From: Nitrosopumilus sp.
Lineage (GTDB): Archaea; Thermoproteota; Nitrososphaeria; Nitrososphaerales; Nitrosopumilaceae
Direction of reading: 5' to 3'
Assembly (NCBI GenBank): GCA_965205215.1
Contig: OZ242041.1
Coordinates: 1,792,001-1,856,000, forward strand
Length of the DNA stretch: 64,000 nt
Shown one piece after another: positions 5,263-54,262 of the stretch. The notes beneath the pieces are model-generated. The model was not told the origin of the DNA. It did no database searches and was given only the letters and a program-made list of their open reading frames with translations. Positions within the stretch are counted from its first letter, which is position 1. Every line of letters begins with the position of its first letter. The position numbers and the translations under genes are program-made.

Positions 5263-6603
5263 CTACGCGTCGAACCCGTACTTTGACTTGAAGGGGGAGA
5301 CGGCCCGCAGTTCTGCCACCGCCCTCTTGAGGATGTCTACGGCACGATCCACCTCGTCACCGGTGTTGAGCGTATCAGGAGTAAGCCTCAGAGAGCCGGT
5401 TATCTGCTCATGCGTGAACCCCATTGCCTGCAGTACGTGGGACGCCTTTTGTGTGTGTACAGAACAGGCCGATCCTGTGGAGGCGGCAACGCCATACTCG
5501 TCGAGTTTTACCAGCAGATCCTCGCCGTTGACGCCAAGAAACGTAAAGTGCGAGTTTCCCGGAAGGCGGGCGGCCGGATCGCCGTTCAGCGCGGACTGGG
5601 GTATCTCCTCAAGTATCCGGCGTATGAGAAGATCACGCAGTGCACGCGTGTGGCTCATGTGGATGTCAATGTCGTCACGCGCGATGCGGGCGGCCGCCCC
5701 AAACCCCACAATTCCGGCCACGTTCTCCGTTCCCGAGCGCATTCCATCCTCCTGTCCTCCGCCCAGCGCGTGCGGCGCCAGACTCGTCCCGGCGCGTACG
5801 TAGAGGGCCCCGACACCCTTAGGTCCGTGTATCTTGTGCGACGATACTGACATCATGTCAACCCCGAGTGATTTGACGTCGACTGGAATCTTTCCGGCAG
5901 CCTGGACCGCGTCGGTATGGAACAGCGCCCCCGCGGCGCGGCACATGCGTGCAATCTCCCGGACCGGCTGGATTGTCCCCACCTCGTTGTTGGCATGCAT
6001 CACGGAGACAAGCGTCAGCTGCCCGGATGCAGGATCGGGCGCGGCAGGCGGTTTGAGCCGCGGATCCCGTAGCGTAGCGCCGGCGCTGCCGCCATGGCCG
6101 TTGGTACTGCCGCCTCCATGGCCGTCGCCGTTATTGGCACTTCCATCACAGTCGTCATCACAATCGCGGGTCTCATCCACGCCAAGTAGTTTGGCAAGTC
6201 TTCTGGTGTCAACCGTTCCACGCCGGTCGACGGGCAGATACTCGACTGAGGCGGTTCCCCGCCGTGCCAGATCCATGCACGGTTCCAGTACCGCATCGTG
6301 CTCTATGGACGAGGTGATTATACGACACGCGCGCCGCGCCTCAGACGCGGCCAGCGCAGCTCCGCAGAGGGCCATGTTGTTGGATTCCGTCCCGCCGGAC
6401 GTGAATACGATCTCCCGGGGCATGGCGTTTATCAGACGTGCCACCTGTTTGCGCGCCGCTTCGACCGCCTTTCTGGCCATCCGTCCACCACGATGAATCG
6501 AGGACGGGTTTCCGTACTGGTCCTCCAGATACGGGCGCATGGCGTCAACCACATCCGGATACATGCGGGTGGACGCCGCATTGTCAAGATATATGAAGTT
6601 CAA
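5263..6603 (-). CDS. iscS: Cysteine desulfurase, IscS/NifS class
   Basis: IYLDNAAST, GNPSSIH, FTSGGTESNN, ANNEVG, HTDAVQ, SSHKIHGPKG and STGSACS motifs; contains a low-complexity insert of about 50 aa. Confidence 0.93.
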   Translation of the reverse strand: MNFIYLDNAASTRMYPDVVDAMRPYLEDQYGNPSSIHRGGRMARKAVEAARKQVARLINAMPREIVFTSGGTESNNMALCGAALAASEARRACRIITSSIEHDAVLEPCMDLARRGTASVEYLPVDRRGTVDTRRLAKLLGVDETRDCDDDCDGSANNGDGHGGGSTNGHGGSAGATLRDPRLKPPAAPDPASGQLTLVSVMHANNEVGTIQPVREIARMCRAAGALFHTDAVQAAGKIPVDVKSLGVDMMSVSSHKIHGPKGVGALYVRAGTSLAPHALGGGQEDGMRSGTENVAGIVGFGAAARIARDDIDIHMSHTRALRDLLIRRILEEIPQSALNGDPAARLPGNSHFTFLGVNGEDLLVKLDEYGVAASTGSACSVHTQKASHVLQAMGFTHEQITGSLRLTPDTLNTGDEVDRAVDILKRAVAELRAVSPFKSKYGFDA

Positions 6604-7547
6604 TGCGTCACCACGCCGTTGATTTTGCCGGGCCTGTATCCTTCGGGGTCAAGGGCGGCCCCGTCAAACCCGATCAGGACAAGGCGCTCCGTGATTGCCT
6701 GCATCAGCCGGCGCCCCCGAAGTCCCCGCGCGGGACCGGCGGCATCCGCGGCGCGGCCATCGGCAACGCCGCGGCGCGTATCTAGACGGCTGCCGCCGTC
6801 GGGGTTGCCTTGGTGCGTAGCGCCGCAGTTGCCGTCACGGACGTGATCGTCGCCGTCATCAAACACATAGAGCGCCTCAGGCTCCACCTCTATCCTCGCG
6901 GAGCCTCCCACGTCTCTCACTCTCACCTGCCGCGCTCCGGACATCTGGCGCACTATCCGCTCCCCGAGTTCGACGCGCGCAAGGCGCTCGGCAGTAATGC
7001 GCTCGCCCCAAGGTATTCTAGATGCAAGGCAGGAGTTTGACGGCCTGTCATGTACGGAGAGTCCCACATCCCTGGCGACTGCCCTCACGTCATCCTTGGT
7101 AAAGCCGGTCTCCACCAGCGGGCTCTGGACTAGGTTTTTTCTCATCGCCTCTATGCCGGGCCTATAATCGCCAAGATCATCAAGGTTCGTGCCGTCCACC
7201 ACGTCCCAGTGCCCCTCCATCTCCTCGGCAAGTTTCGCGATGCGCCCCCCAAGCTCCGACCTGCAGTAGTAGCACCTGAGGCTATCGTTCTTTACAAAGT
7301 CAGGGTTCTCAAGCTCGTCATATTGGAGCATCACGTGCCGGATCCCGATCTCGGAGCATACGGACTTTGCGGCACCAAGTTCCTCCTGTGACAGGGTACG
7401 GTAGTCCGCCGTGACTGCGACGGCCGAGTCCCCGAGACGGGAGAACGCCGCGTATGCCACGAGGGCGCTGTCCACCCCGCCGGAGAGCGCCACGAGGGCC
7501 CCCCGCCTGCCCTCAAACCACCGGGTGAGATCACAGAGTCGCTTCAC
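6600..7547 (-). CDS. larE: Nickel-pincer cofactor sulfur transferase LarE
   Basis: PP-loop ALSGGVDS, RCYYC, DGTNLDDLGDYRPG, PSNSCLASRIP, QVRVR; next to larC. Confidence 0.9.
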   Translation of the reverse strand: MKRLCDLTRWFEGRRGALVALSGGVDSALVAYAAFSRLGDSAVAVTADYRTLSQEELGAAKSVCSEIGIRHVMLQYDELENPDFVKNDSLRCYYCRSELGGRIAKLAEEMEGHWDVVDGTNLDDLGDYRPGIEAMRKNLVQSPLVETGFTKDDVRAVARDVGLSVHDRPSNSCLASRIPWGERITAERLARVELGERIVRQMSGARQVRVRDVGGSARIEVEPEALYVFDDGDDHVRDGNCGATHQGNPDGGSRLDTRRGVADGRAADAAGPARGLRGRRLMQAITERLVLIGFDGAALDPEGYRPGKINGVVTH

Positions 7548-9007
7548 GCGGCACCGCCTCCTTCCCCCTTTGCTGCTCCTGCATTGGCGCGGCCGGCAGG
7601 GTTGCTGCCGGTGTCAGCAGCAGCATCATCATCTTCTTTGTCGTCGCCGTCGTCACCGCCGCGGCCATGGTCATCAAGCCGCCTCTCCGTTATACGGTGC
7701 CGCAGCAGCAGTTCGGCATCCCTGAACGGGACATGCAGCTCCTCGGAGACGGCCTGGATGTCATCATGCTCTATCTTGAATCCAGAGGTTTTGTCGTAGC
7801 GGCCGACAGTGTCCAGCGTGCCGGGCAAGCGCTCCTTGTACCTCACCTCGAACCGTTTTCCCGATAGGGTCACATCAATCTTCAGCTGCCGCCTCTGCGC
7901 CACGATTCTCTCCGAGGTCGATATCCGGACCCCCAGCGTGCCGGTCTCGGCCATCAGCAGCCCGGCGAGGCGTCCTGACGCCTCTTCAGGGCACATGACA
8001 GATATCAGGCTGGTCGGCCTGTTCTTTTTTGTCAGTCCAGGAAACAAGGATACGTCCTTTGCCCCGGCCGCCATGAGCCTGCCCACCACGCTTCCAAGAA
8101 CCTCGCCGGACACGTCATCGACGTTGGTCTCCAGCATGCATATGCGCTCGGTCCTGAGGCCGCCGTGCCCCAAGGCCTGGCCAGCGGAGGCGGCGGCAGC
8201 TGCAGAAGTTGCAGCAGACGCACGAGGCTCAGATCCGCGCACGAGCTTCAGCACGTTTGAGATCCCCTCAACGTCGGCCTGCCCGGCCCCATACCCGACT
8301 GATTCCACCCGCATGCAAGGATAAGAGGAGACCGGCTCGGGGGATAGTGCGGCAAGCATGCAGGCCCCAGTCGGGGTCGTAAGTTCGCGGCCGGCCTGCG
8401 AGCCCAGTATCTGCAGCCCGGACTCTTCGAATATCTCAAGTATGGCACCCGCAGGGTTCGACACCGTCCCGTGTGAGAACGAGACCAGTCCGTTTCCCAC
8501 GCATGCAGGAAGGCATACCATGCGCTGCCCGAAAAGCCCCAGATCGTCAAGCGCGACCGCGGTTCCGATTATGTCAACCAAGGTATCGACGTCAGACGCC
8601 TCGTGGAGTATTGCCGAATCCGGCGTGACGCCGTGCACCCTTGACTCGGACGTCATCAGGATCTCCACGCATCTGGACGCGTACGAGCGGGCCTCATCAG
8701 ACAGCCCAAGGCCTGCAGACGAGATTCTCACGGCATCCAGCATCTCCGAGCCTGCTCGTGTGGGATGCCGAGGTGCGCCGTCGTCGCAATGCACGTCTCG
8801 GGCCTCCAAGGACAGCCCTGTCGCCGAGGTGCCGTTTTTGGTGGTTGTCCTAAACTCCATCGAGTCTATGGCGCAGCCGTCCAGATGTGCGGCAGATTTT
8901 CTGACACCGTCTATGACGGCGTCGCCGTTGGCGCCCATATCGACAAGGGCGCACAGGAACATGTCACCTGAGATGCCGGCCACCTGCGGATCTATCACCA
9001 GAACCAT
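7544..9007 (-). CDS. larC: Nickel insertase LarC
   Basis: AGISGDMFLCAL, LHEA..DTLVDI, ELTTPTGA, GYGAG, LETNVDD, KKNRP, ETGTLGVR. Start trimmed to MVLVIDPQ (TATA at about 9030). Confidence 0.92.
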   Translation of the reverse strand: MVLVIDPQVAGISGDMFLCALVDMGANGDAVIDGVRKSAAHLDGCAIDSMEFRTTTKNGTSATGLSLEARDVHCDDGAPRHPTRAGSEMLDAVRISSAGLGLSDEARSYASRCVEILMTSESRVHGVTPDSAILHEASDVDTLVDIIGTAVALDDLGLFGQRMVCLPACVGNGLVSFSHGTVSNPAGAILEIFEESGLQILGSQAGRELTTPTGACMLAALSPEPVSSYPCMRVESVGYGAGQADVEGISNVLKLVRGSEPRASAATSAAAAASAGQALGHGGLRTERICMLETNVDDVSGEVLGSVVGRLMAAGAKDVSLFPGLTKKNRPTSLISVMCPEEASGRLAGLLMAETGTLGVRISTSERIVAQRRQLKIDVTLSGKRFEVRYKERLPGTLDTVGRYDKTSGFKIEHDDIQAVSEELHVPFRDAELLLRHRITERRLDDHGRGGDDGDDKEDDDAAADTGSNPAGRANAGAAKGEGGGAA

Positions 9008-9290
9008 GAGTCTTGACACGAAAAAATGCTTATAAATTCGACTAAACGCCCGCACGGGCGCCGAATTCACGCACGGTAGGCATTCTGCAAAAGCCCCCAC
9101 CAGCAAGCAGCCAGTGACGGGCTGGGCTGCCCGGCCGCATTGGCATGGCAGCGCCTGGGCCGGCCGGCTCTGCGCGTGCACACGACAGGAATCCAGCCAT
9201 TCCAATCGCGAGCCTGCCGACGGCCTGCGCGTGCGGGCGGGCGGGCGGGCCACTGATCTAGGTTTAATTATCGACCCCTGTCCATCCCAC

Positions 9291-10208
9291 ATGTTGATTA
9301 CGATCATAGGCTCCGGCAAGGTGGGTGGAGACGCCGCGCTCTTCTCTGCGCTAAAGCAGCTGGACGATCAGATACTGCTGCTCGACGTGGTCGAGGGGCT
9401 GCCGCAGGGCGAGGCCATGGACATCAACCACGCGCTGGCTGAACTCGGCACGGACGTGGAGGTGAGAGGCTCCAACGACTATGCCGACATGAGGGGGTCA
9501 GACATCGTGGTCGTAGTGGCAGGCTCCGGCAGAAAGCCCGGCATGACCAGGATGGACCTGCTGAAGATCAACTCATCCATAGTAAAGAGTGTGATTGGCG
9601 AGGTGAAAAGGCACGCGCCCGACTCGATGCTGATACCAGTGACAAACCCGCTTGATCCCATGGCGTACGTCGCATACAAGGTCTCGGGATTCGACAGGAG
9701 CCGCGTATTTGGAATGGGCGGAATGCTCGACATGTCAAGATTCAAGCAGTTCATACACGAGGCGACGGGACACTCCCGAGACTCGATAAGGGCCCTTGTC
9801 ATAGGCGAGCACGGGGAGAACATGCTGCCGCTGACTAGGTTCTCATCCGTATCAGGCGTGCCGCTGCACGACATACTGCAAAGGGAGGAGCTTGGCAAGC
9901 TGATAACCGACACGAGGCAGGTGGCCGCAAGAGTGATAGAGCTGAAGGGGGCCACCGTACACGCGCCCGGAAATGCAGTGTCGTCCATAATAGAGTCCGT
10001 CGTCAGGAACAAAAAGCAGGTGCTGCCCGTCTCGACGCCGCTTGAAGGCGAGTACGGCTACTCGGGCATCACAATGGGCGTGCCGGCCGTGATCGGCCGC
10101 GACGGGGTGGAAAGGATAATAGAACTCGACCTCAACGACGAGGAGAGGGCGGCCCTTGCAAAGTCGGCAGAGTCGGTAAAGAGCGCGATAGCCTCAATCG
10201 GGGCATGA
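9291..10208 (+). CDS. mdh: Malate dehydrogenase (LDH-like)
   Basis: [35 protein letters not shown]. Confidence 0.93.
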
Positions 10209-10360
10209 GCACGCCCGCCATTGTGACAAATTGGCACAAGCCCAAGCCCCTGGCCCGTGAAATCCGAAGGCGGAGGCCGGCAGACACGAATCTGCGGGGG
10301 CCCGGGCCCGTGCGGCGGGTATAGACTCAAGCTTTTTTTAGACGCACGCCGCGTTGTTTC

Positions 10361-11269
10361 GTGATGAACGTCCAAGAGATACTACAGGCGCTAAAGTCCG
10401 GAGACGTCACGGCGCAGGAGGCAGAAAAGCTCCTCTCGATATACGCCATAGAGGAGGTAGAAGACTATGCAAGGATCGACACAAAACGGGCAATGCGCAG
10501 GGGTGGCATTCCAGAAATAATACTTGCCGAGTCCAAGCGCATCCACGAGACAAAGGAGATTGCAAAAAGGATGCTCGAAAAAGAGGGCGTGGCCGTGATA
10601 TCGCGCATAAGAGAGGAGGACCACGACAGCATCATATCGTACGCCAAGGGACTGGGGGCGTCAGTGTCAACCGGCAGGAACGCGTCGACGATACTGGCGC
10701 ACACCAGGCCCATAAGGCAGACGGGCGCCACGGTCGGGATACTTGCCGCAGGCACTTCCGACGTGGGCATAGCAGAAGAGGCTAGAATAGTCTGCGAGGC
10801 CATGGGCTGCAGGTGCGTCACCGGATACGACGTTGGCGTGGCCGGGCTGCAGCGCATATTCCCCATGCTAAAGGAGATGACGCGCGCCGGCGTGGGATGC
10901 GTCATAGTGGTGGCGGGGATGGAGGGCGCGCTTGCCACGCTGGTCTCCTCACTCATGGACGTGCCGGTCATAGGCGTGCCGACATCCGTGGGGTATGGGT
11001 ACGGCCAGGGGGGCGTGGCCGCCCTGGCATCGATGTTGCAGAGCTGCTCGCTTGGGATGGCAGTCGTGAACATAGACGGCGGGGCGGCGGCCGGAAGCAT
11101 TGCGTCGATGATCGCAAACAGGGGGCGCGGGACGGCGCCCCGCGAAGGCGGGAAAGACGAGGACGGCGATGCCACAAGCGGAGGGGACGGCAGCGGCAAT
11201 ACAGGCGGATCCGGCGGCACGCGCCGGCCTCGGCCAGACACGAAAAGGCGACATTCTAGAAAATCATAA
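10361..11269 (+). CDS. larB: Nickel-pincer cofactor carboxylase/hydrolase LarB
   Basis: ARIDTKR..PE, AAGTSD, DVGVAGL, VAGMEGAL, VPTSVGYG, VVNID. Confidence 0.92.
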   Translation: MMNVQEILQALKSGDVTAQEAEKLLSIYAIEEVEDYARIDTKRAMRRGGIPEIILAESKRIHETKEIAKRMLEKEGVAVISRIREEDHDSIISYAKGLGASVSTGRNASTILAHTRPIRQTGATVGILAAGTSDVGIAEEARIVCEAMGCRCVTGYDVGVAGLQRIFPMLKEMTRAGVGCVIVVAGMEGALATLVSSLMDVPVIGVPTSVGYGYGQGGVAALASMLQSCSLGMAVVNIDGGAAAGSIASMIANRGRGTAPREGGKDEDGDATSGGDGSGNTGGSGGTRRPRPDTKRRHSRKS

Positions 11270-45836: not shown

Positions 45837-46973
45837 TCAAGACGGTTCTGTCTTGGGACGCGTCGCGGAGGGCGCATCACCACTGTGCGCGCCCACAAGA
45901 TCCAGGTAGGTTTTGTGGCGGCGCTTTTGAATCGCGTCAAAGATTCCTGCGGCGCCGTCCCCAAGATTGGCATAGTTTGCAGTGACGTACTGCAGTGCAA
46001 TGTCGCAGTCGTGTATGGCGCCAGTCGATTCCTGGACCTGCCTTACGCTGTCCAAGACCCTCGACAGTGATGCATCATAGTCTTGGGCATCACCGACATT
46101 GCAGGTGTCACTGGCATGGGGGGCGACGACGACGACGCTGCAATACGTCCGGTACTGGGTCTCGTCTTCCAGCAGGTAGCGGAGCCTCTTTACCATCTTC
46201 CGCATGGCATGAAGCTCCTCAACCTTTGACTCGTCAGAGGTCACTGTTACAGAGATGCCACGCACGTCATCAAAGAGCGACCAGATCATGCGCCTGCGCT
46301 TGGACGCCATCTTGTGCCGGTCAATCTTGTCCACCGATCCAGACAGCGGCTTGAGCGCCGCTATTTTCCTGGCGCGAAAGAGCGAGTCCCCAAGGGCGCC
46401 CTCCCTGCCGCGGCAGAGTTTTACAACCGCCTCCGAATCGGCCGGAACGCCCAGCTTGATCAGCATGCCGGATATGACATCAGAGTCCCGCAGCGGGCCG
46501 GTCCTGCGGAACAGGTCCCTTGCAGCGGACACCAGCTTGCCGCAGCGCGCGGGCCTTTCTGACTTTGGCAGTGCGCCGTACGTGGACTCGAGCCGGCGTA
46601 TGGACGTGCGCAGGTCGTGCAGCTGCTCCTCGCCCGGACTGGACATGTATGCCTCAAGGCGCTTTGCAAAGAGATCGTAGCGCCTGCGCATTGCGTTGCG
46701 GTACGTCCTTGTGGTGCCAGCATCGTTGCCCGAGACGGGGTGCGGCCCGCCCTTTTTAGGCGGCTTTTTCCCGGAGCCCGCAGTATCCGCCACCGCGCCC
46801 GCAGCGTCAGGGACGGGTTCGCGCGCCGAGGCGGTCACGGAAGCGTCGGGGGCGGCGTCAGCGACAGTAGAGGTAGTGGCAGTGGCAGTATCGGCGTCGG
46901 CGGCGACAGCGGGGACGCCCTGCCCATGATCGTCATGTTCCCCGTGCGTGGTTTCGGGCCTTGTGTGAGCCAT
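45837..46973 (-). CDS. CHAD-domain polyphosphate-binding protein
   Basis: LHDLRTSIRRL, G.LRDSDV, LHAMRKMVKRLRY..E, Q.STGAIHDCD. Confidence 0.88.
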   Translation of the reverse strand: MAHTRPETTHGEHDDHGQGVPAVAADADTATATTSTVADAAPDASVTASAREPVPDAAGAVADTAGSGKKPPKKGGPHPVSGNDAGTTRTYRNAMRRRYDLFAKRLEAYMSSPGEEQLHDLRTSIRRLESTYGALPKSERPARCGKLVSAARDLFRRTGPLRDSDVISGMLIKLGVPADSEAVVKLCRGREGALGDSLFRARKIAALKPLSGSVDKIDRHKMASKRRRMIWSLFDDVRGISVTVTSDESKVEELHAMRKMVKRLRYLLEDETQYRTYCSVVVVAPHASDTCNVGDAQDYDASLSRVLDSVRQVQESTGAIHDCDIALQYVTANYANLGDGAAGIFDAIQKRRHKTYLDLVGAHSGDAPSATRPKTEPS

Positions 46974-46997
46974 GCGCCGCCATCACCGCCATTATCG

Positions 46998-47960
46998 TCA
47001 TGCCTTTGAGAGATACCGCAGGATCTGCTTCTTGAGCCCGGCGTTTATGACGTCCGTGGGGCGGTTTCCGTTTATGATGTTGAGGTCGTACTTTTGCTCC
47101 AGGATCCCAAACTCCCGGGCGAGCCTCTGCTGGTATTTTATGAAAGAGTCGTACATGTTCTTTGATATGCCCATGTCGGCTCCCGACTCGTAATAGTCCA
47201 GGCTCTGCCTCTTTGCAAAGACGCGGTGCACGAGTGCGTACGGGTCCACGTCAAGGTAAAAGGTCATGTCCGGCACGAGTGCAAAGCTGTACAGGTTGCT
47301 TGACCAGCTGCGCCTGATGCCGCGCACCGTGTTTCGCGCCATGAGCGTGTAGATGTATCGGTCTGCCAGTACCACATAGCCCGCCTGCAGCGCCGGTATG
47401 ATCTTGTGCTCCAGCTGGTCTGCAAAGTCGGCCGCATAAAACATTGCAAGCGTCCTCACCCCAAGCGAGATGTTGCGCTTGGCCTCCAGTATGCCCTGGC
47501 CGATTATCTCCGAGCGCGTGAGTCCCGTGTTTAGCACGGCGTATCCTTCTGCCTCTAGCTGCGTGGTGAGCAGCTCGATCTGGGTGCTTCTTCCGGACGC
47601 GTCGGGCCCCTCTATTACGATCAGGCGCCCCGCTATCTCGATGTCGCGCAGATAGTGCAGCCCGCCGAACTTTTTTGTTCCGTACCATTTGGGCCTGCGG
47701 GACTTCATGCCACCCATGTTACTGCTACTGCCGCCAGCGCCAGCTCCGCCGCCGGTACCGGTACCGGCGGCGCGACTGCCGCCGCCGTCCGCGGCGGCAC
47801 CCTCCACACCCGCAAGCCGGAGGTATATGTCAGAGTCATAGTACGCGTGGCTGTCAGAATACTCCTCTGTAGCGTCGCCGGCCGCGTCATTATTCTCAGA
47901 GTCCTCCCCGGCACCGCCATGCATGACGCGGCCATGTGCGGCGCGTGCCTCTGCGACCAC
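46998..47960 (-). CDS. Thymidylate-kinase-fold protein B (altered P-loop); candidate polyphosphate kinase subunit
   Basis: LIVIEGPDASGRSTQ, FYAADFADQLE, LADRYIYT, YYESGAD; low-complexity N-terminus. Confidence 0.8.
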   Translation of the reverse strand: MVAEARAAHGRVMHGGAGEDSENNDAAGDATEEYSDSHAYYDSDIYLRLAGVEGAAADGGGSRAAGTGTGGGAGAGGSSSNMGGMKSRRPKWYGTKKFGGLHYLRDIEIAGRLIVIEGPDASGRSTQIELLTTQLEAEGYAVLNTGLTRSEIIGQGILEAKRNISLGVRTLAMFYAADFADQLEHKIIPALQAGYVVLADRYIYTLMARNTVRGIRRSWSSNLYSFALVPDMTFYLDVDPYALVHRVFAKRQSLDYYESGADMGISKNMYDSFIKYQQRLAREFGILEQKYDLNIINGNRPTDVINAGLKKQILRYLSKA

Positions 47961-48000
47961 CGCCCCGGACGCGTCGCGTACGGATGCAAAGTCGCCCGCG

Positions 48001-48789
48001 TCAGACGTGCCCGGGCACCTCCAGAACGGTCTTCTTCTTGAGCTTCTTTGGAAGCAGCTTGCGCACCTTGGCCCGCATGATCATCTGCTGTTCGTGGATG
48101 GGCATCGTGGCGTCCATAACCACGAAGCTCTCGCGCTTGTGCATCGCCTCATACTGCTCTACGATGCGGTGCTGGAATATCCTAAAGCTCTCGTAGAGGT
48201 CCTTTGAGAGGTTCAGGTCGGCGCCGGCTTCATAAAACTTCAGCTTTGGCCTGCCGGACAATATGCGGTCCATCGCGGTGTCAAGCGGCACCCTAAAGTA
48301 GAATGCGATGTCGGGCTTTATGGCAAAGTCGTAGACCTTGCGGACCCACGCCGGGTCGCATCCCCGCGTCACGTCCCTGGCGTACGCGGTGTAGACGTAC
48401 CTGTCGGCCAGCACGAAGTAGCCGGCATGAAGCAACGGCAGTATGTGCCGCTCAAATCGATCGGCAAAGTCAGTCGCGTGAAGGAGGCTGAACGTGGTGG
48501 GTGTCAGGGCTTCCTTTTTCTTGCCCTTGGACGTTATGGAACGGACTATATCCGAAGAGTTCCACTCCGTGCGAAACACCTCAAACATGTTGTACCGCAG
48601 CCACTTTTCAAGCAACAACAGCTGGGTGGACTTGCCGGAGCCGTCTATCCCCTCGACTACGATAAGCTTGCCAGGGACGTCCCCCCTGCGCGGGCGGCGC
48701 CTCCCGGCTTCGGCCTTTTTGGCCCCCGCCTGTCCCGCGGCGCCGTAATCGCCGTCCGCGGCGCCAGTGCGCGAGGATGCAGCCATCAT
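48001..48789 (-). CDS. Thymidylate-kinase-fold protein A (intact P-loop); candidate polyphosphate kinase subunit
   Basis: LIVVEGIDGSGKSTQ, LHATDFADRFE, LADRYVYT, FYEAGAD. Confidence 0.82.
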   Translation of the reverse strand: MMAASSRTGAADGDYGAAGQAGAKKAEAGRRRPRRGDVPGKLIVVEGIDGSGKSTQLLLLEKWLRYNMFEVFRTEWNSSDIVRSITSKGKKKEALTPTTFSLLHATDFADRFERHILPLLHAGYFVLADRYVYTAYARDVTRGCDPAWVRKVYDFAIKPDIAFYFRVPLDTAMDRILSGRPKLKFYEAGADLNLSKDLYESFRIFQHRIVEQYEAMHKRESFVVMDATMPIHEQQMIMRAKVRKLLPKKLKKKTVLEVPGHV

Positions 48790-48986
48790 GCATGGTTTTT
48801 GCCCGCAAATAGACTATAAGTCTTGCAAATAATCCGCAGGGTTGCCCCGCGCGCCGGCGCAGCGGCGCGCCGCGGCGGGGTGGGCCCACTAGTGGACGGC
48901 GCAGGTGGCGTATGACGCGGGCAGTCCGGGCGGGGGCGCGGAGGGGCCAAGTGACGCCTGCAGTTGCACGGGTGGGCGCACGCGCG

Positions 48987-50708
48987 TCACCCAACGACCC
49001 GGACGTCCGGACGGAACGGTATTCCAAACGCGTCCTCCAGCTGGGAGCACGCTTCCTCGAACATGAGGTGCGGAAAGCGGCCTCCGGGCGGCGCGCGTAC
49101 GGCAAGCGTGACGGAGCCGCCTTTGCCAAACTCCGGGACCATGTCGGCCGAGGACTTCTCCAGTATCTGGTACGCAAGCACAATGGCCGACATCCGGCGT
49201 ATCCGTTTCTTGTCGTACGAGCGGGCTATGGACCCAAAGTTGAGCAGGTTCACGTCAGCCTTGCGGCGCTTTCTCAGGTGCATCAGGGCCAGGGCGGCGG
49301 CAAGCTGGTCGCCGTGGCTCAGGTGCGAGTCGTCGTCCATTATGGTATACAGTATGTTTGAGATGTCCCTAAACGACCTCAGGCGGTCCGTCTGCTCCAG
49401 CGCGTACCGGATTACGGGCCGGTCGACTGGGTGCAGGAGGTTTGCAGACAGGAGAAGCTCCACGAGCGCGTCGATTTTGGACGATACGAGGACCGAGGAC
49501 GGGGAGACCGCGCTGAGGACAGTCTCCCGGATGTGCTGCTCGTCTATGCGCTGCGACTTGAACGCGGCCGGGTGCTGTATCGACAGCGCAAGCGCGCCCT
49601 CCCGCAGTCCGTGCGCGCTGACAGTCAGCCTTTCGCATTTCACGCTTTTGAGAAACGACATTATTACGAGCACGGAGGCGCGCAGGGTGTCTGCCCGCGA
49701 GGAGTTTATTGTGGGAATCTTTGCAATCCTGTCAGGGGGCATGTCGCGTATCTTTTTCCATATGTCCTCAAGGTCGGTCACGGAGAGCTGGTAGTTGTGG
49801 GTCTTTGAGAGCGGGTAGCCTTTGGCGTCCTGCACGTATTTGGTAAGCGAGCGGAGCACCCCGCCGACCCCCACTATGGCGACTGCCGGAGGCCCGGTCC
49901 CGACGGCGCCGTCGCGGCCGTCTTTGTCGCCGCGAATATTGCCATCGTCGTCGCTGCCGGCGCCGTTGCCGGCGCCATTGTCACCGCCCGCACTGCCGCC
50001 GTCGCCCGCCGGGTATAGCTCGCCGTCCTTTATCTCCAAGTCCTTCAGGGACGGCAGCGCCTTACCGACGTACTTTTTCATGGCCTCAAAGTCCACATCC
50101 TCGTACTTGGAATCTTCGGCGAACTTTTGCGTCAGCCGCAGGGAGCCGAGCGGGAAAGAGTGCGCGCTCTTTACCTTGTAGTTCTTTGCAGTGACGACCT
50201 CCAGGCTCCCCCCGCCAATGTCAAAGAAGAGCACCGATGGGATGTGCAGCATGCGCACGGCCCCCGTGTACGAGTAGAGGGCCTCGTCCCTGTCTGACAG
50301 TATCTTAAAGTCGAGGCCGGTCTCTTGGCGGATGCGATCTGTTATGTCGCGGCGGTTCTTCGCGTCGCGTATTGCGCTGGTCGCCACCGCGACCACGTGC
50401 TGTATCCCCTCAAAGTCTATCGCCTCACGGAACAGCCTGAGTGTCTCGACCATGCGGTCCACGTACTCGGGCTGCATGACCCCGCCCTTGAGCCCCTCAA
50501 AGAGGCGCAGGCGCACGGATCTCTGGTAATAGAGCTTGAAGTCGTTGTGCGCGTCCATGGTATAGTGCGAGAGTTTCACAGAGTTTGATCCCAGATCAAG
50601 CACGGACGCCGCGGGCCTGCTTGATTCCCCCCGGGCCGCCTCCGCGGGGATCCGTGACGTCCCAATGCGCCGCGCGGAGGCGATTGCGGCGTGCAGCTCC
50701 GGCATCAT
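48987..50708 (-). CDS. ppx: Ppx/GppA family exopolyphosphatase
   Basis: LDLGSNS, ATSAIRDA, EALYSY, DIGGGSLE, LGSLRL, GLREG; start inferred from TATA at about 50728-50738. Confidence 0.92.
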   Translation of the reverse strand: MMPELHAAIASARRIGTSRIPAEAARGESSRPAASVLDLGSNSVKLSHYTMDAHNDFKLYYQRSVRLRLFEGLKGGVMQPEYVDRMVETLRLFREAIDFEGIQHVVAVATSAIRDAKNRRDITDRIRQETGLDFKILSDRDEALYSYTGAVRMLHIPSVLFFDIGGGSLEVVTAKNYKVKSAHSFPLGSLRLTQKFAEDSKYEDVDFEAMKKYVGKALPSLKDLEIKDGELYPAGDGGSAGGDNGAGNGAGSDDDGNIRGDKDGRDGAVGTGPPAVAIVGVGGVLRSLTKYVQDAKGYPLSKTHNYQLSVTDLEDIWKKIRDMPPDRIAKIPTINSSRADTLRASVLVIMSFLKSVKCERLTVSAHGLREGALALSIQHPAAFKSQRIDEQHIRETVLSAVSPSSVLVSSKIDALVELLLSANLLHPVDRPVIRYALEQTDRLRSFRDISNILYTIMDDDSHLSHGDQLAAALALMHLRKRRKADVNLLNFGSIARSYDKKRIRRMSAIVLAYQILEKSSADMVPEFGKGGSVTLAVRAPPGGRFPHLMFEEACSQLEDAFGIPFRPDVRVVG

Positions 50709-50910
50709 CACGCTAACGCCAAACCGCATTAATAATAACAATTGTGCCCAATCGTGACATGCCGGTGGCGGCCCGGTCACGGCGCCGCGCTTTGCGCATT
50801 TTTCGATCGCGGGTGCCACGATCGCGGCTCATTCCCGGTGCGCCAGCGCGTAATATACGAGCATAACGACCCGCGGCCGACAACTCGCGTTGCGCCGCAC
50901 GGGAAGGGCG

Positions 50911-51486
50911 TCAGCGAGCTGCGCGCCGGCACAGCCTCAGCTGCTTTGGAGTCATCAGGCTTCGCAGAAACCCCCTCATCACCCGCGCATCCGCGTTTGC
51001 CCGTATGACTGCAAGCCCGCCCTTTTTGAGATTTATGACCGCGTCGGGCGCGTACGCGTACGCGCGCCTATCGCGCGCCGTAGACCGCCCGGAGCGCCGG
51101 GCGATCATAGAGGATGCCAGCGACGACAGATGAGGCTCGTGCCCCACAAGCATCACGCCCAAATCCGGGGCCATTGCAGCCAGCCGCCCGTGCGCACCCA
51201 GCACGTCCGACTCAGGCTTTAGTTCCTGCCATATGCCGACCCGGGCGGAGCCCCGGCCCGAATCTTGCTCAAGCCGCAGACGCTCGCGTATGATCTCGGC
51301 AGTCTCGCGGGCCCTGACAAGCGGGCTTGATATTATACGATCGGGACGTATCCCAAGCGCCGTAATCCCAGATGCAACCTGCTCCATCTCGTTCCTGCCG
51401 GACTCTGTCAGCCTACGCTTTGCATCGCTTGAGATGCCGGACGAGCGCTCCTCTGCCTTGCCATGCCTGAGAATGTAGATCTCCAC
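50911..51486 (-). CDS. sixA: Phosphohistidine phosphatase SixA
   Basis: ILRHGKAE, D..RRLT..G, SSPLVRARETA, LVGHEP. Confidence 0.9.
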   Translation of the reverse strand: MEIYILRHGKAEERSSGISSDAKRRLTESGRNEMEQVASGITALGIRPDRIISSPLVRARETAEIIRERLRLEQDSGRGSARVGIWQELKPESDVLGAHGRLAAMAPDLGVMLVGHEPHLSSLASSMIARRSGRSTARDRRAYAYAPDAVINLKKGGLAVIRANADARVMRGFLRSLMTPKQLRLCRRAAR

Positions 51487-51642
51487 GTGTACAATATCCC
51501 GGCACGTGTTTAAAAGAGCCGCAGACGATGTCTGGGTATACGATCTGTGCAGTCGTCAGGTACAGCGTACGGCATCCGACACGAAGGGTGGTGGTGGCGG
51601 GCGGTAACAACTGTTATTTGTGCATGGAAGGTCAGCCGTAGC

Positions 51643-52713
51643 ATGAGTTCCGACGCACCGTCAGATGACGCGGCCACAAAGGTGGATGCCGCACAAAACG
51701 ACGCAGGTGACGCCAACGTCAGTGACAAGACGGGCGACGGGGACGTCGGCGGCGCGGAAGAGATGAAAGAAGACACCGCAGCGCGTGACAATGATCCCGA
51801 AGGCGAGGAAGAAACAAGCGGAGACCAGCAACCAGAAGAAGAAGAAGAAGAAGAAGAGGCAGTGCACGACCAGGACGATACAGAAAACGGCGGCGAGGAC
51901 GACAATGTTGGCGACGGCGACGGCACGCCACCTGCAAAAAAATCAAGCAACGGACTTGTCATCGGGCTGATCATAGCAGTCGGCGTGGCCGCATTTTTTG
52001 CAGGCGCGTATTCAATTAGCATGTACCAAGAGCAGCCGGATCAGCTGACGCAAGAGGATCTTGATGACGCGCTTGCCAAGCTGGAGCTAAAGATGATGCA
52101 ACAGCAGATGGCCGCACTGCAGGAGCAGCAGCAGCAGCAGCAACCGCCACCCATACGAATATCGGCCGACGACGATCCCACAATAGGTGACGCGGACGCC
52201 CCCATTACAATCATAGAATTTTCGGACTTCCAGTGTCCGTTCTGCGCCAGATTCAGCTCCCAGACCCTGCCCTCCATACAAGAGGAGTACATAGACAAGG
52301 GGCTCGTAAAGCTGGTCTACAGGGACTTTCCGCTCCAGCACATACACCCCAACGCTGCCGTCACGGCACTTGCGGCCGAGTGCGCAGACGACCAGGGCGG
52401 CTTCAAGGGCATGCACGACATCCTGTTTGAAAAGCAGGGTGAATGGAGCAGGGCAGGCCCCCAGGAAGTCATAGAACTGCTCAGCGGGTACGCGTCCGAC
52501 ACGGGAATCGACGCGGCCGAGTTTGAGGAGTGCGTAGTCATGGGCACGCACGTCGAGGACATCAGGGGCGACTTGGAGGACGGAAGGGCGTACGGCATAA
52601 CAGGCACGCCGGGATTCTTCATCGGAAACGACGACGTGGGGTACGTATCAGTCGAAGGGGCCCAGCCGTACGACGTCTTCAAGAGGGTCATAGACTCCCA
52701 GCTCGAGCGCTGA
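51643..52713 (+). CDS. Membrane-anchored DsbA-family oxidoreductase
   Basis: G..DAPITIIEFSDFQCPFC, YRDFPL, GITGTPGF, GAQPY; acidic N-terminus plus TM helix. Confidence 0.9.
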   Translation: MSSDAPSDDAATKVDAAQNDAGDANVSDKTGDGDVGGAEEMKEDTAARDNDPEGEEETSGDQQPEEEEEEEEAVHDQDDTENGGEDDNVGDGDGTPPAKKSSNGLVIGLIIAVGVAAFFAGAYSISMYQEQPDQLTQEDLDDALAKLELKMMQQQMAALQEQQQQQQPPPIRISADDDPTIGDADAPITIIEFSDFQCPFCARFSSQTLPSIQEEYIDKGLVKLVYRDFPLQHIHPNAAVTALAAECADDQGGFKGMHDILFEKQGEWSRAGPQEVIELLSGYASDTGIDAAEFEECVVMGTHVEDIRGDLEDGRAYGITGTPGFFIGNDDVGYVSVEGAQPYDVFKRVIDSQLER

Positions 52714-52852
52714 GACGGGGAAAGGCGGAAGGAGAGAAAGCGGCAAGCGTTTATTAGACGTTCCACGCGTCCGCGAATCGGAATAATGACGGTGGGCGGT
52801 GAGCTTTCTCGTCATTGCCTGTGAGAAAAAAGAAAAGAGAAGAAAAGAAAAA

Positions 52853-54262
52853 ATGACAAAATTTAGCGAACTAGGCCTCAGCGACGACATAATCAAGGCA
52901 ATATCCGAGATGGGATTCGAGGATGCGTTTCCGATACAAGAGGCCGCCATACCCGTGCTGCTGACTGGAAGGGACGTGGTGGGCCAGGCCCACACGGGCT
53001 CCGGCAAGACGGCCGCCTTTGCGCTCTCGATGCTGCAGGAGATACGCCCCAACCGCACCATCCAGGGGCTGATCATGGCGCCCACGAGGGAGCTTGCCAT
53101 GCAGATCACCGACGAGATCAAAAAGTTTTCAAAGTATCTGGATACCCGGGTTGCCACAATATACGGCGGCCAGGGGATCGGGGTGCAGATAGACGCGCTT
53201 GAGCGCGGGGTGGAGATACTGGTCGCCACGCCGGGAAGGCTGATAGACCACCTAAAGCGCGGCACAGTCGACCTCAAGGACGTGACGCACATAGTTCTGG
53301 ACGAGGCCGACACCATGCTCGACATGGGATTCATAGACGACATACAGTTCATACTGGACTTGGCGCCGGAGGAGAGGGTCATGTCGCTGTACTCGGCCAC
53401 CATGCCGACGGAGATACTGAGGCTGTCTGAGGATTACCTGAACAACCCAAAGCAGTTCCTGCTTGACGCCGACGACTTGAGCGGCGAGGGCATAGACCAG
53501 TCGTTTCTGGTAATCAGGGACAAGGAAAAGTTCAAGCACATCATGCAGTTCATCGGGGAGACGCGCGGGCAGTGCATCATATTCTGCTCCACCAAATACA
53601 GGACGAGGGACGTGGGAAGGTACCTGCACAGGGAGAGGCTGGACGCAGTGGTGATAGAGGGCGACATGTCACAGGTAAGAAGGGAGCAGTCGATGGCAAA
53701 GTTCCGCAGCAACAAGGCAAAGATACTGGTGGCAACAGATGTGGCCTCAAGGGGCATAGACGTGCCCATGGTGGAGCTTGTGATCAACTATGACGTCCCA
53801 AACCAGGACATGACGTACTTTCACAGGATTGGCAGGACTGCGAGGGCGGGCGCGCACGGAAGGGCGATCACGCTTGTCTCGTATTCGTCATTTGACGAAT
53901 GGAATCTGATAAAGCGCCAGATCAAGGTGCCGTTAAAGGACCTCAACGAGTCGATGGGTATCAAGATCTCGATACCGGATCCGCTCAAAAGGGAGATACC
54001 CGTAAGAAGGTACGGGGGCGGCGGCGGCGGCGGCGGCAATAGAGGAGGCGGCGGCTACCGCGGAGGCCACCGCCGAGAGAGAAGGGACACGTATGATCCC
54101 AGGGACGGCGGTCGGAGAGGCGGCCGAGGCGGCGGAGGCGGCGGCGGCTATGGCGGCCGAGGCGGCGGCTATGGCGGCCGAGGCGGCGGCGGCCAGAGAA
54201 GGGATGGCGGATACCGCAAGGGAGGCGGCGGCGGCCGAAACCGGCGCGACGACAGACGCTAG
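52853..54262 (+). CDS. DEAD-box RNA helicase with RGG tail
   Basis: Q motif, TGSGKT, PTRELA, TPGR, DEAD, SAT, SRGID, HRIGRTAR. Confidence 0.95.
   Translation: MTKFSELGLSDDIIKAISEMGFEDAFPIQEAAIPVLLTGRDVVGQAHTGSGKTAAFALSMLQEIRPNRTIQGLIMAPTRELAMQITDEIKKFSKYLDTRVATIYGGQGIGVQIDALERGVEILVATPGRLIDHLKRGTVDLKDVTHIVLDEADTMLDMGFIDDIQFILDLAPEERVMSLYSATMPTEILRLSEDYLNNPKQFLLDADDLSGEGIDQSFLVIRDKEKFKHIMQFIGETRGQCIIFCSTKYRTRDVGRYLHRERLDAVVIEGDMSQVRREQSMAKFRSNKAKILVATDVASRGIDVPMVELVINYDVPNQDMTYFHRIGRTARAGAHGRAITLVSYSSFDEWNLIKRQIKVPLKDLNESMGIKISIPDPLKREIPVRRYGGGGGGGGNRGGGGYRGGHRRERRDTYDPRDGGRRGGRGGGGGGGYGGRGGGYGGRGGGGQRRDGGYRKGGGGGRNRRDDRR

Follow-up and report, generated by a model that had tools for sequence, protein, structure and literature searches.

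The family-3 polyphosphate kinase PPK3 was described from Sulfolobus acidocaldarius (J Biol Chem, February 2026, PMC12995831; bioRxiv 2024, 10.1101/2024.08.28.610084), and what we say of it follows the portions of these sources that were accessible to us. The operon comprises saci_2017 (SixA), saci_2018 (PPX), saci_2019 (cPPK3), saci_2020 (rPPK3) and saci_2021 (CHAD), of which saci_2019 and saci_2020, once annotated as thymidine monophosphate (dTMP) kinases, encode the heteromeric, alpha2beta2 SaPPK3. Saci_2019 makes polyphosphate (polyP) and on its own reaches about one tenth of the holoenzyme activity; Saci_2020 is inactive and activates Saci_2019, with a maximum at 1:1. Neither protein phosphorylates dTMP, a reaction carried out by a third paralogue encoded elsewhere in the genome. 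The enzyme is reversible, with ATP synthesis from ADP plus polyP preferred 50-fold in specific activity, and polyP was formed only with an ATP-recycling system; the equilibrium ATP/ADP ratio of 3-4 lies under the ratios reported in growing cells (PMC12995831). Here, we analyzed 64,000 nucleotides (nt) of DNA from Nitrosopumilus sp. (assembly GCA_965205215.1, contig OZ242041.1, positions 1,792,001-1,856,000), a stretch that we call the window as a whole. We conclude that five of its genes very probably form a PPK3-type polyP operon, orthologous gene for gene to saci_2017-2021, whose two kinases, termed A and B below, would work as they do in Sulfolobus.

The sixA, ppx, kinase A, kinase B and CHAD genes occupy positions 45837-51486, all on the minus strand and co-oriented. 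The sequence-only reading of this DNA had listed the same five open reading frames (ORFs), and the Pfam and NCBIfam assignments agree with its names. From sixA towards CHAD, the intergenic gaps calculated from the ORF coordinates are 91, 197, 40 and 24 nt. The number, order and orientation of the genes are those of the S. acidocaldarius operon as given in the accessible text of PMC12995831, and the order is seen directly in the Metallosphaera locus L001. Also common to both are the thymidylate kinase (Tmk) fold and the split between a Walker A lysine in the catalytic (c) subunit and a Walker A arginine in the regulatory (r) subunit. In contrast, the r protein of the window keeps the arginine of the DRX motif, whereas the Sulfolobaceae r protein (ADGY in L001) is without it. 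Additionally, the window differs in the 81-residue disordered N-terminal extension of kinase B, in low-complexity inserts within Ppx and CHAD, and in the 197 nt between ppx and the kinases, which contain a TATA-like box. The host belongs to the mesophile-type Nitrosopumilaceae, whereas S. acidocaldarius is a thermoacidophile.

The sequence-only reading had pointed, correctly, to a two-subunit family-3 PPK beside ppx in S. acidocaldarius, and it had seen novelty in a thaumarchaeal version with CHAD and SixA attached. This novelty falls, because saci_2017-2021 already includes both SixA and CHAD and because thaumarchaeal members are in print: in their accessible parts, PMC12995831 reports PPK3 in Nitrososphaeraceae and the preprint places it in "Sulfolobales and some Nitrososphaerales". 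The system is thus already described as a kind, and the window holds a further member in the family Nitrosopumilaceae, where it has barely been noted. What we add is the Nitrosopumilaceae operon itself, a Walker A hallmark of the r subunit, the single thaumarchaeal clades of c and r, and the finding that 60 of the 80 best loci are bacterial.

Two further types of system invite comparison. Two-domain class II PPK2 enzymes, whose N-terminal domain is inactive, resemble the PPK3 pair in that both are P-loop kinases acting on polyP, in that an inactive paralogous module aids oligomerisation and activation, and in that the equilibrium lies towards nucleotide phosphorylation. However, none of the five operon proteins matches the PPK1 or PPK2 domain families (Pfam, E <= 0.01), and the two modules of PPK3 are separate genes in most loci. 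An earlier statement that PPK2 shares the thymidylate-kinase fold stands insofar as the P-loop kinase fold is common; it goes no further, since the accessible text of PMC12995831 gives this fold as the only specific kinship between PPK3 and PPK2, with the ADP and polyP sites swapped. Bacterial ppk1-ppx neighbourhoods have PPX, SixA and CHAD accessory genes in common with the window, whereas the window is without PPK1 and its kinases have an unrelated fold. Most PPK3-bearing genomes are without PPK1 and PPK2, and replacement of PPK1 by PPK3 in situ, or the reverse, has been proposed (PMC12995831).

Catalytic and regulatory kinases

Kinase A (48001-48789, minus strand, 262 residues; Pfam Thymidylate_kin, 4.3e-22) was assigned as cPPK3, the catalytic subunit. 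Its match to the solved cPPK3 homologue of S. tokodaii (2plr/5h70) has an E-value of 3.7e-63, compared with 1.7e-15 for the best canonical Tmk in the PDB. The AlphaFold model of kinase A (mean predicted local distance difference test score, pLDDT, 86.7) superimposes on 5h70 in Foldseek with a template-modelling (TM) score of 0.94, a root-mean-square deviation of 1.6 A and 51% identity. Kinase B (46998-47960, minus strand, 320 residues; Thymidylate_kin, 2.9e-21) was assigned as rPPK3, the regulatory, pseudokinase-like subunit. It shares 35% identity with kinase A, and its best PDB match is again the S. tokodaii cPPK3 homologue (2.5e-33). Residues 1-81 form a low-complexity extension that is predicted to be disordered, with pLDDT below 50 at residues 1-10 and 12-81 in a model that averages 79.3; the model matches 5h70 with a TM score of 0.91-0.93 and 34% identity. 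For both models, the Foldseek E-values of canonical Tmk structures are about 6-10 orders weaker than that of 5h70.

Both proteins exceed the cut-off of the NCBIfam "dTMP kinase" equivalog TIGR00041 (83.25 bits; kinase A 87.6, kinase B 84.5). Therefore, an annotation pipeline would name both dTMP kinase, as had been anticipated from the sequence. The likeness to canonical Tmk (TIGR00041/PF02223) is real and extends to the fold, the Walker A motif, DRX, the lid architecture and scores above the family cut-offs. Nevertheless, neither protein belongs to the canonical dTMP kinases: both lie in a clade of their own, and the REPGGT-type segment is replaced in each, c having TEWNSS and r having TGLxRS where E. 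coli Tmk has REPGGT and the canonical rows have REPGGT or TR.... The context differs as well, being polyP rather than DNA-precursor metabolism, and the characterized orthologues are without dTMP kinase activity. The identity of the dTMP-binding residues was taken in part from a statement in the accessible text of PMC12995831.

Relatives were collected by scanning species-representative genomes with a 10-sequence cPPK3 alignment, which gave at least 600 stretches, of which 563 could be confirmed; the best 80 serve here as loci L001-L080. All kinase ORFs of these loci were aligned for a motif survey. Kinase A has the intact motifs GSGKST (Walker A), TEWNSS, HATDFADR and DRY and retains R138, R142 and R175, so that the P-loop, DRX and lid features of a catalytic subunit are all present. 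It also carries all seven c-specific basic residues (K88, R111, R150, R166, R180, K184 and R203), positions at which at least 86% of the 84 c-sorted rows, 80 of which are true c, have lysine or arginine, compared with 0-54% of the r rows. Judging by the description of the cleft in the accessible text of PMC12995831, these seven residues should line the polyP cleft. Kinase B is without six of them, in agreement with the statement there that the cleft is conserved in c and not in r. Four of the c-sorted rows had a Walker A arginine; the idea that they are odd catalytic subunits was rejected, since they are the second kinases of L005, L022, L073 and L076.

The Walker A motif of kinase B reads GPDASGRST, with arginine in place of lysine, and this substitution proved general. 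All 80 true c genes have the lysine, and 77 of the 78 second kinases, Metallosphaera included, have arginine. The one that differs comes from L080, a Chloroflexia metagenome-assembled genome (MAG); this r gene is broken, lying in two pieces at 6802-7342 through either a frameshift or an assembly error, and its fragment has no arginine at this site. By comparison, PMC12995831 ascribes the inactivity of rPPK3 to loss of the DRX arginine. Kinase B keeps this arginine (ADRY), together with several lid arginines, as do 77 of the 78 second kinases; it is lost only in the Sulfolobaceae locus L001. Therefore, we did not treat loss of the DRX arginine as family-defining. From these motif states, the published explanation of r inactivity looks specific to Sulfolobaceae, and the Walker A Lys-to-Arg change looks like the family-wide mark. 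The latter is unmentioned in the accessible main text of PMC12995831, whose supplementary figures may show it.

A careful IQ-TREE analysis (88 rows, 240 columns) drew its c and r genes from half of the 80 loci (the 19 archaeal ones without exception and 21 selected bacterial ones, 40 in total), with three cluster representatives, one solo gene from Clostridium, the two window proteins and, as an outgroup, four canonical Tmk sequences (E. coli, Anabaena, Streptomyces and Leuconostoc). The four canonical sequences separate with support of 95/94, and kinases A and B fall on the PPK3 side, which answers the comparison with Tmk that the sequence-only reading had proposed; with so few outgroup sequences, all on long branches, the weakest part of the tree is the position of its root. 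All r genes form a single clade (100/100) that includes kinase B and the long-branched Metallosphaera r. Within the c group, kinase A pairs with the c gene of L010 (100/94), and kinase B pairs correspondingly with the r gene of L010 (98/85). The thaumarchaeal c genes, kinase A included, form one clade of 17 rows (100/99), which also holds the c genes of L018 and L031, and the thaumarchaeal r genes, kinase B included, form one of 15 rows (100/100). The idea that the two kinases in the ppk position are a polyP kinase is thus supported by orthology, through the 2plr/5h70 match and the tree, and their activity is presumed from that of the Sulfolobus enzyme.

Linkage, fusion and distribution of PPK3 genes

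The tandem arrangement of the kinases is conserved. In 78 of the 80 loci, c is followed by r on the same strand, as kinase A is followed by kinase B here across a 40-nt gap; among the 74 clear pairs, the c-r gap has a median of -4 nt, and the two genes overlap or abut in 57. Within the fetched flanks, Ppx was found in 57 of the 80 loci (37 of the 45 loci with at least 4 kb on both sides), CHAD in 35 (22 of 45), SixA in 34 (24 of 45) and all three in 24 (16 of 45), which bears out the expectation that the linkage would be conserved. None of the three was found in the flanks of 20 loci (8 of 45); going by their record titles, 14 of these 20 belong to Verrucomicrobiota, and several run into a contig end. 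The full order SixA-Ppx-c-r-CHAD occurs in L001 (Metallosphaera javensis), L013 (a Nitrosotenuis MAG) and L030 (a Nitrososphaerales MAG). The five-gene arrangement is not due to chance.

Fusions of the two kinases also occur. Three single-chain proteins (P0082, P0093 and P0147) have GKST and WNSS in the first half and GRST in the second, and these natural c-to-r fusions, like the tandem order and the overlap of the two genes, give indirect support for a physical association of c and r. Other proteins combine such domains differently. P0133, P0141 and P0142 are longer, with two Tmk-like domains followed by a Ppx domain III/HD domain. PPK3-like kinase domains were further seen within large multidomain proteins: P0186, P0189, P0196 and P0202 join a Tmk-like domain to an MFS transporter and to APH and/or DUF2252, P0214, P0236 and P0246 carry subsets of the MFS, APH and DUF2252 partners, and P0164 and P0227 are giant proteins with an inorganic-pyrophosphatase domain, accompanied in P0164 by an ADP-ribosyltransferase domain.

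Searching with kinase A gave at least 8000 scored candidates, every one at E <= 1e-10. Among the best 120, 118 share 73-97% identity with kinase A and the two fused proteins P0082 and P0093 share 61%. The named matches are mostly Nitrosopumilus, Nitrosopumilaceae, Nitrosarchaeum or "Thaumarchaeota"; the name of a Flavobacteriales MAG stands alone on one match and alongside Nitrosopumilus on another. By record title, the 60 bacterial loci among the best 80 include 20 from Acidobacteriota and 18 from Verrucomicrobiota, and one further locus is untyped. PMC12995831 speaks, in its accessible text, of PPK3 in "a few bacteria"; our counts suggest a wider bacterial spread, although that study surveyed a different set of genomes. 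In six Verrucomicrobiota loci (L012, L034, L043, L046, L048 and L054), a short Ppx-like gene is not adjacent to the kinase pair but sits about 1 kb downstream; its ORF has 310-364 residues in five of them and is a 103-residue contig-end fragment in L034. In the flanks of other Verrucomicrobiota loci, Ppx, SixA and CHAD were not found.

A plasmid search with kinase A matched 23 records, of which 22 are canonical tmk-type genes (25-34% identity) and one is a solo PPK3-like gene; there was no PPK3 pair among the 23. The solo gene, a "hypothetical protein" with 36% identity to kinase A (L082, 3224-4642), lies on the Clostridium estertheticum plasmid NZ_CP086250.1 directly 3' of a CYTH-domain gene, and this neighbourhood may point to an enzyme of the triphosphate-tunnel type.

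For the Nitrosopumilaceae, published records are sparse. In the accessible Data S1 of PMC12995831, 14 of 15 Nitrosopumilaceae genomes, N. maritimus included, are scored 0/0/0 for PPK1/2/3, and the single PPK3-positive genome is one "Nitrosopumilus sp."; Cenarchaeum and three Nitrosotenuis genomes likewise receive 0, and PPK3 is credited to 7 of 8 Nitrososphaeraceae. In contrast to these negatives, numerous cPPK3 proteins of the Nitrosopumilaceae type are present in public data, and the Nitrosotenuis MAG of L013 has the full operon. In a study of sponge symbionts, just 2 of the 23 thaumarchaeal genomes had an exopolyphosphatase, and no kinase was named, which is consistent with a patchy presence. 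In the literature that was searched by text, no paper contains both "PPK3" and "Nitrosopumil".

Accessory genes and surroundings of the operon

The first gene of the operon, sixA (50911-51486, minus strand), encodes a 191-residue protein of the histidine-phosphatase fold and is the counterpart of saci_2017. Its product matches NCBIfam TIGR00249 (1e-24; 87.2 bits, cut-off 74.5), Pfam His_Phos_1 (1.4e-12), PDB 3f2i (1.1e-13) and E. coli SixA (1ujb, 3.8e-5), and its translation shows an N-terminal RHG motif. The ppx gene (48987-50819, minus strand; longest ORF 610 residues) encodes an exopolyphosphatase of the Ppx/GppA family that matches Pfam PF02541 (Ppx-GppA, 9e-45, in two stretches), GppA (PDB 6pc0, 3.9e-33), Aquifex PPX (1t6c, 2e-25) and NCBIfam TIGR03706 (1.8e-66, under the cut-off of that model), with an insert rich in Gly and Asp behind the first domain. 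The corresponding proteins of relatives have 505-547 residues, compared with 610 here, and the real start of ppx may lie further inside the ORF. The last gene (45837-46973, minus strand) is the counterpart of saci_2021 and encodes a 378-residue protein with a CHAD domain at residues 94-269 (Pfam PF05235, 8.6e-15 and 55.8 bits, cut-off 25.6; PDB 6qv7, 2.4e-4) behind an N-terminus of about 90 residues of low complexity. A CHAD gene lies 3' of the r gene in L001, L013, L026 and L030.

Two candidate promoter elements were noted, using what we take to be the archaeal TATA consensus and spacing. TTTTAAA (51509-51515, minus strand), 26 nt upstream of the sixA GTG, is a putative TATA box, and a TTTTATA box stands at a similar spacing upstream of sixA in the Metallosphaera locus L001. 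The second candidate, TTATAG (48814-48819, minus strand), lies within the ppx-kinase A gap, about 27 nt upstream of the ATG of kinase A. Boxes reading TTTATAG are found about 30-35 nt upstream of the called c start in L002 and L026 and not in L010, that is, in two of three Nitrosopumilaceae loci.

Downstream of kinase B, the window continues with CHAD, two small ORFs and then BacA-SufB-SufD; the segment 38346-44499 encodes BacA (undecaprenyl-diphosphatase family), SufB and SufD, along with a cysteine desulfurase and a NifU-like protein. The Nitrosopumilaceae MAG L010 has the order c-r-BacA, and L002, also Nitrosopumilaceae, has SixA-Ppx-c-r-SufB-SufD. These BacA/SufBD neighbours, common to the window, L010 and L002, mark a syntenic, conserved chromosomal site in Nitrosopumilaceae. 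It follows from this synteny that the operon is chromosomal and that CHAD comes and goes.

The G+C content of the window is 54-65%, and transfer RNA and Rfam scans of the window gave zero matches. Low-complexity stretches occur in many of the proteins encoded at 45837-54262, among them a DsbA-like protein (51547-52713) with an acidic run containing (E)n and a DEAD-box helicase (52799-54262) with a tail rich in Gly and Arg. Elsewhere, at 6600-11269, lies a gene group similar to what is presumably nickel-pincer cofactor synthesis, in which genes for a QueC-like PP-loop protein (6600-7547), for a Ni-insertion protein (7544-9319) and for an AIR-carboxylase-like protein (10361-11269) surround one that resembles a lactate/malate dehydrogenase (9114-10208).

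Proposed function and competing explanations

Overall, we provide a putative mechanism for this operon, in which activity, direction in vivo and heteromer formation are modelled on the Sulfolobus enzyme, and the genes present, their orthology, the states of their motifs, the folds and the conserved linkage are those reported above. Kinase A, with its Walker A lysine, DRY, lid arginines and c-specific basic residues intact, would be the catalytic subunit. Kinase B, which has arginine at the Walker A site and has lost most basic residues of the putative cleft, would be a paralogue turned non-catalytic partner. By analogy with SaPPK3, the two would assemble as alpha2beta2 and shuttle the terminal phosphate reversibly between ATP/ADP and polyP, so that polyP would be made only at a high ATP/ADP ratio and ATP would be regenerated from polyP at low energy charge. 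Ppx would trim the ends of polyP to phosphate, the CHAD protein would bind the polymer or granule, and SixA may be an accessory phosphatase.

Several points weigh against this picture. Both kinases score above the dTMP-kinase equivalog cut-off, and the S. tokodaii homologue was deposited under the name "dTMP kinase". Reversible ATP:polyP transfer without dTMP kinase activity is known for the S. acidocaldarius enzyme only, and our view of canonical tmk, ppk1 and ppk2 genes covers the 64-kb window only. Kinase B retains the very arginine whose loss PMC12995831, in its accessible text, gives as the cause of inactivity; the case for its putative inactivity consists of the Lys-to-Arg change and its clade membership. 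One "Thermoproteota archaeon" MAG has two loci (L018, 1154-5172; L031, 1736-4938) with SixA-Ppx-c and the r gene absent, and therefore the r partner is not universal. Additionally, the 197-nt gap and the TATA-like box before kinase A hint that transcription of ppx may be separate from that of the kinases, in two transcription units.

The equivalog scores, the Pfam Thymidylate_kin matches and the name of the solved homologue would suit a simpler view, that both genes are ordinary duplicated dTMP kinases and the neighbourhood of ppx is incidental. We regard this view as barely credible. Both proteins lie in a clade apart from the four canonical Tmk, TEWNSS and TGLxRS stand where canonical enzymes have REPGGT or TR..., kinase B is without the Walker A lysine, and the pair is linked to ppx in most loci; moreover, the Sulfolobus orthologues are without dTMP kinase activity, which resides in the third paralogue. 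It is also quite improbable that kinase A alone is the polyP kinase and kinase B is non-obligatory, for example a nucleotide- or polyP-binding sensor or a decaying gene. The residual activity of Saci_2019 alone, the two loci without r, the r gene of L080 in two pieces, and the DRY and lid arginines of kinase B, which fit ligand binding without catalysis, can all be read in that way. However, r follows c in nearly every locus and overlaps or abuts it in most clear pairs, the r clade is old and conserved, with thaumarchaeal c and r forming one clade each, c-to-r fusions exist, and activation by Saci_2020 is maximal at 1:1 (PMC12995831).

A further explanation concerns the direction of the reaction. 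The pair might only consume polyP in vivo, as a polyP-dependent nucleotide kinase that may favour a different acceptor nucleotide, with another enzyme making the polymer. The preference of SaPPK3 for ATP formation and its need for ATP recycling would fit, as would the two-domain PPK2 class II enzymes, which show only the consuming direction (PMC12995831). We nonetheless consider it unlikely: the reaction can run both ways, its equilibrium ATP/ADP ratio being below those reported for growing cells, most PPK3 genomes are without PPK1 and PPK2, and in the 64-kb window no other candidate was found, with no PPK1, PPK2 or third Thymidylate_kin protein among the 51 other ORFs (Pfam, E <= 1e-5). We favour the PPK3 operon with a catalytic and a regulatory kinase.

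For annotation, adjacent "dTMP kinase" pairs beside ppx are better named cPPK3 and rPPK3, which the Walker A Lys or Arg distinguishes, and our survey points to a universal hallmark of the r subunit other than the published one. The discovery of PPK3 explained polyP synthesis and use in archaea that have neither PPK1 nor PPK2, and a complete operon is now found in the Nitrosopumilaceae as well. This is the family of abundant marine ammonia oxidisers. Because in archaea and bacteria alike r is altered only by the Walker A Lys-to-Arg change and the DRX and lid arginines are kept, r could still bind ADP or ATP; because c and r each form one thaumarchaeal clade, PPK3 would be old and vertically inherited in ammonia-oxidising archaea. 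We tentatively speculate, as a possibility that we hold to be rather less than even, that r, rather than being an inert scaffold, is a conserved nucleotide-sensing pseudokinase which gates c by energy charge, and that such an old, vertical PPK3 persists in a sizeable part of the marine Nitrosopumilaceae. If true, polyP would serve as an energy and phosphate buffer in those marine Nitrosopumilaceae to which the published survey credited no PPK.

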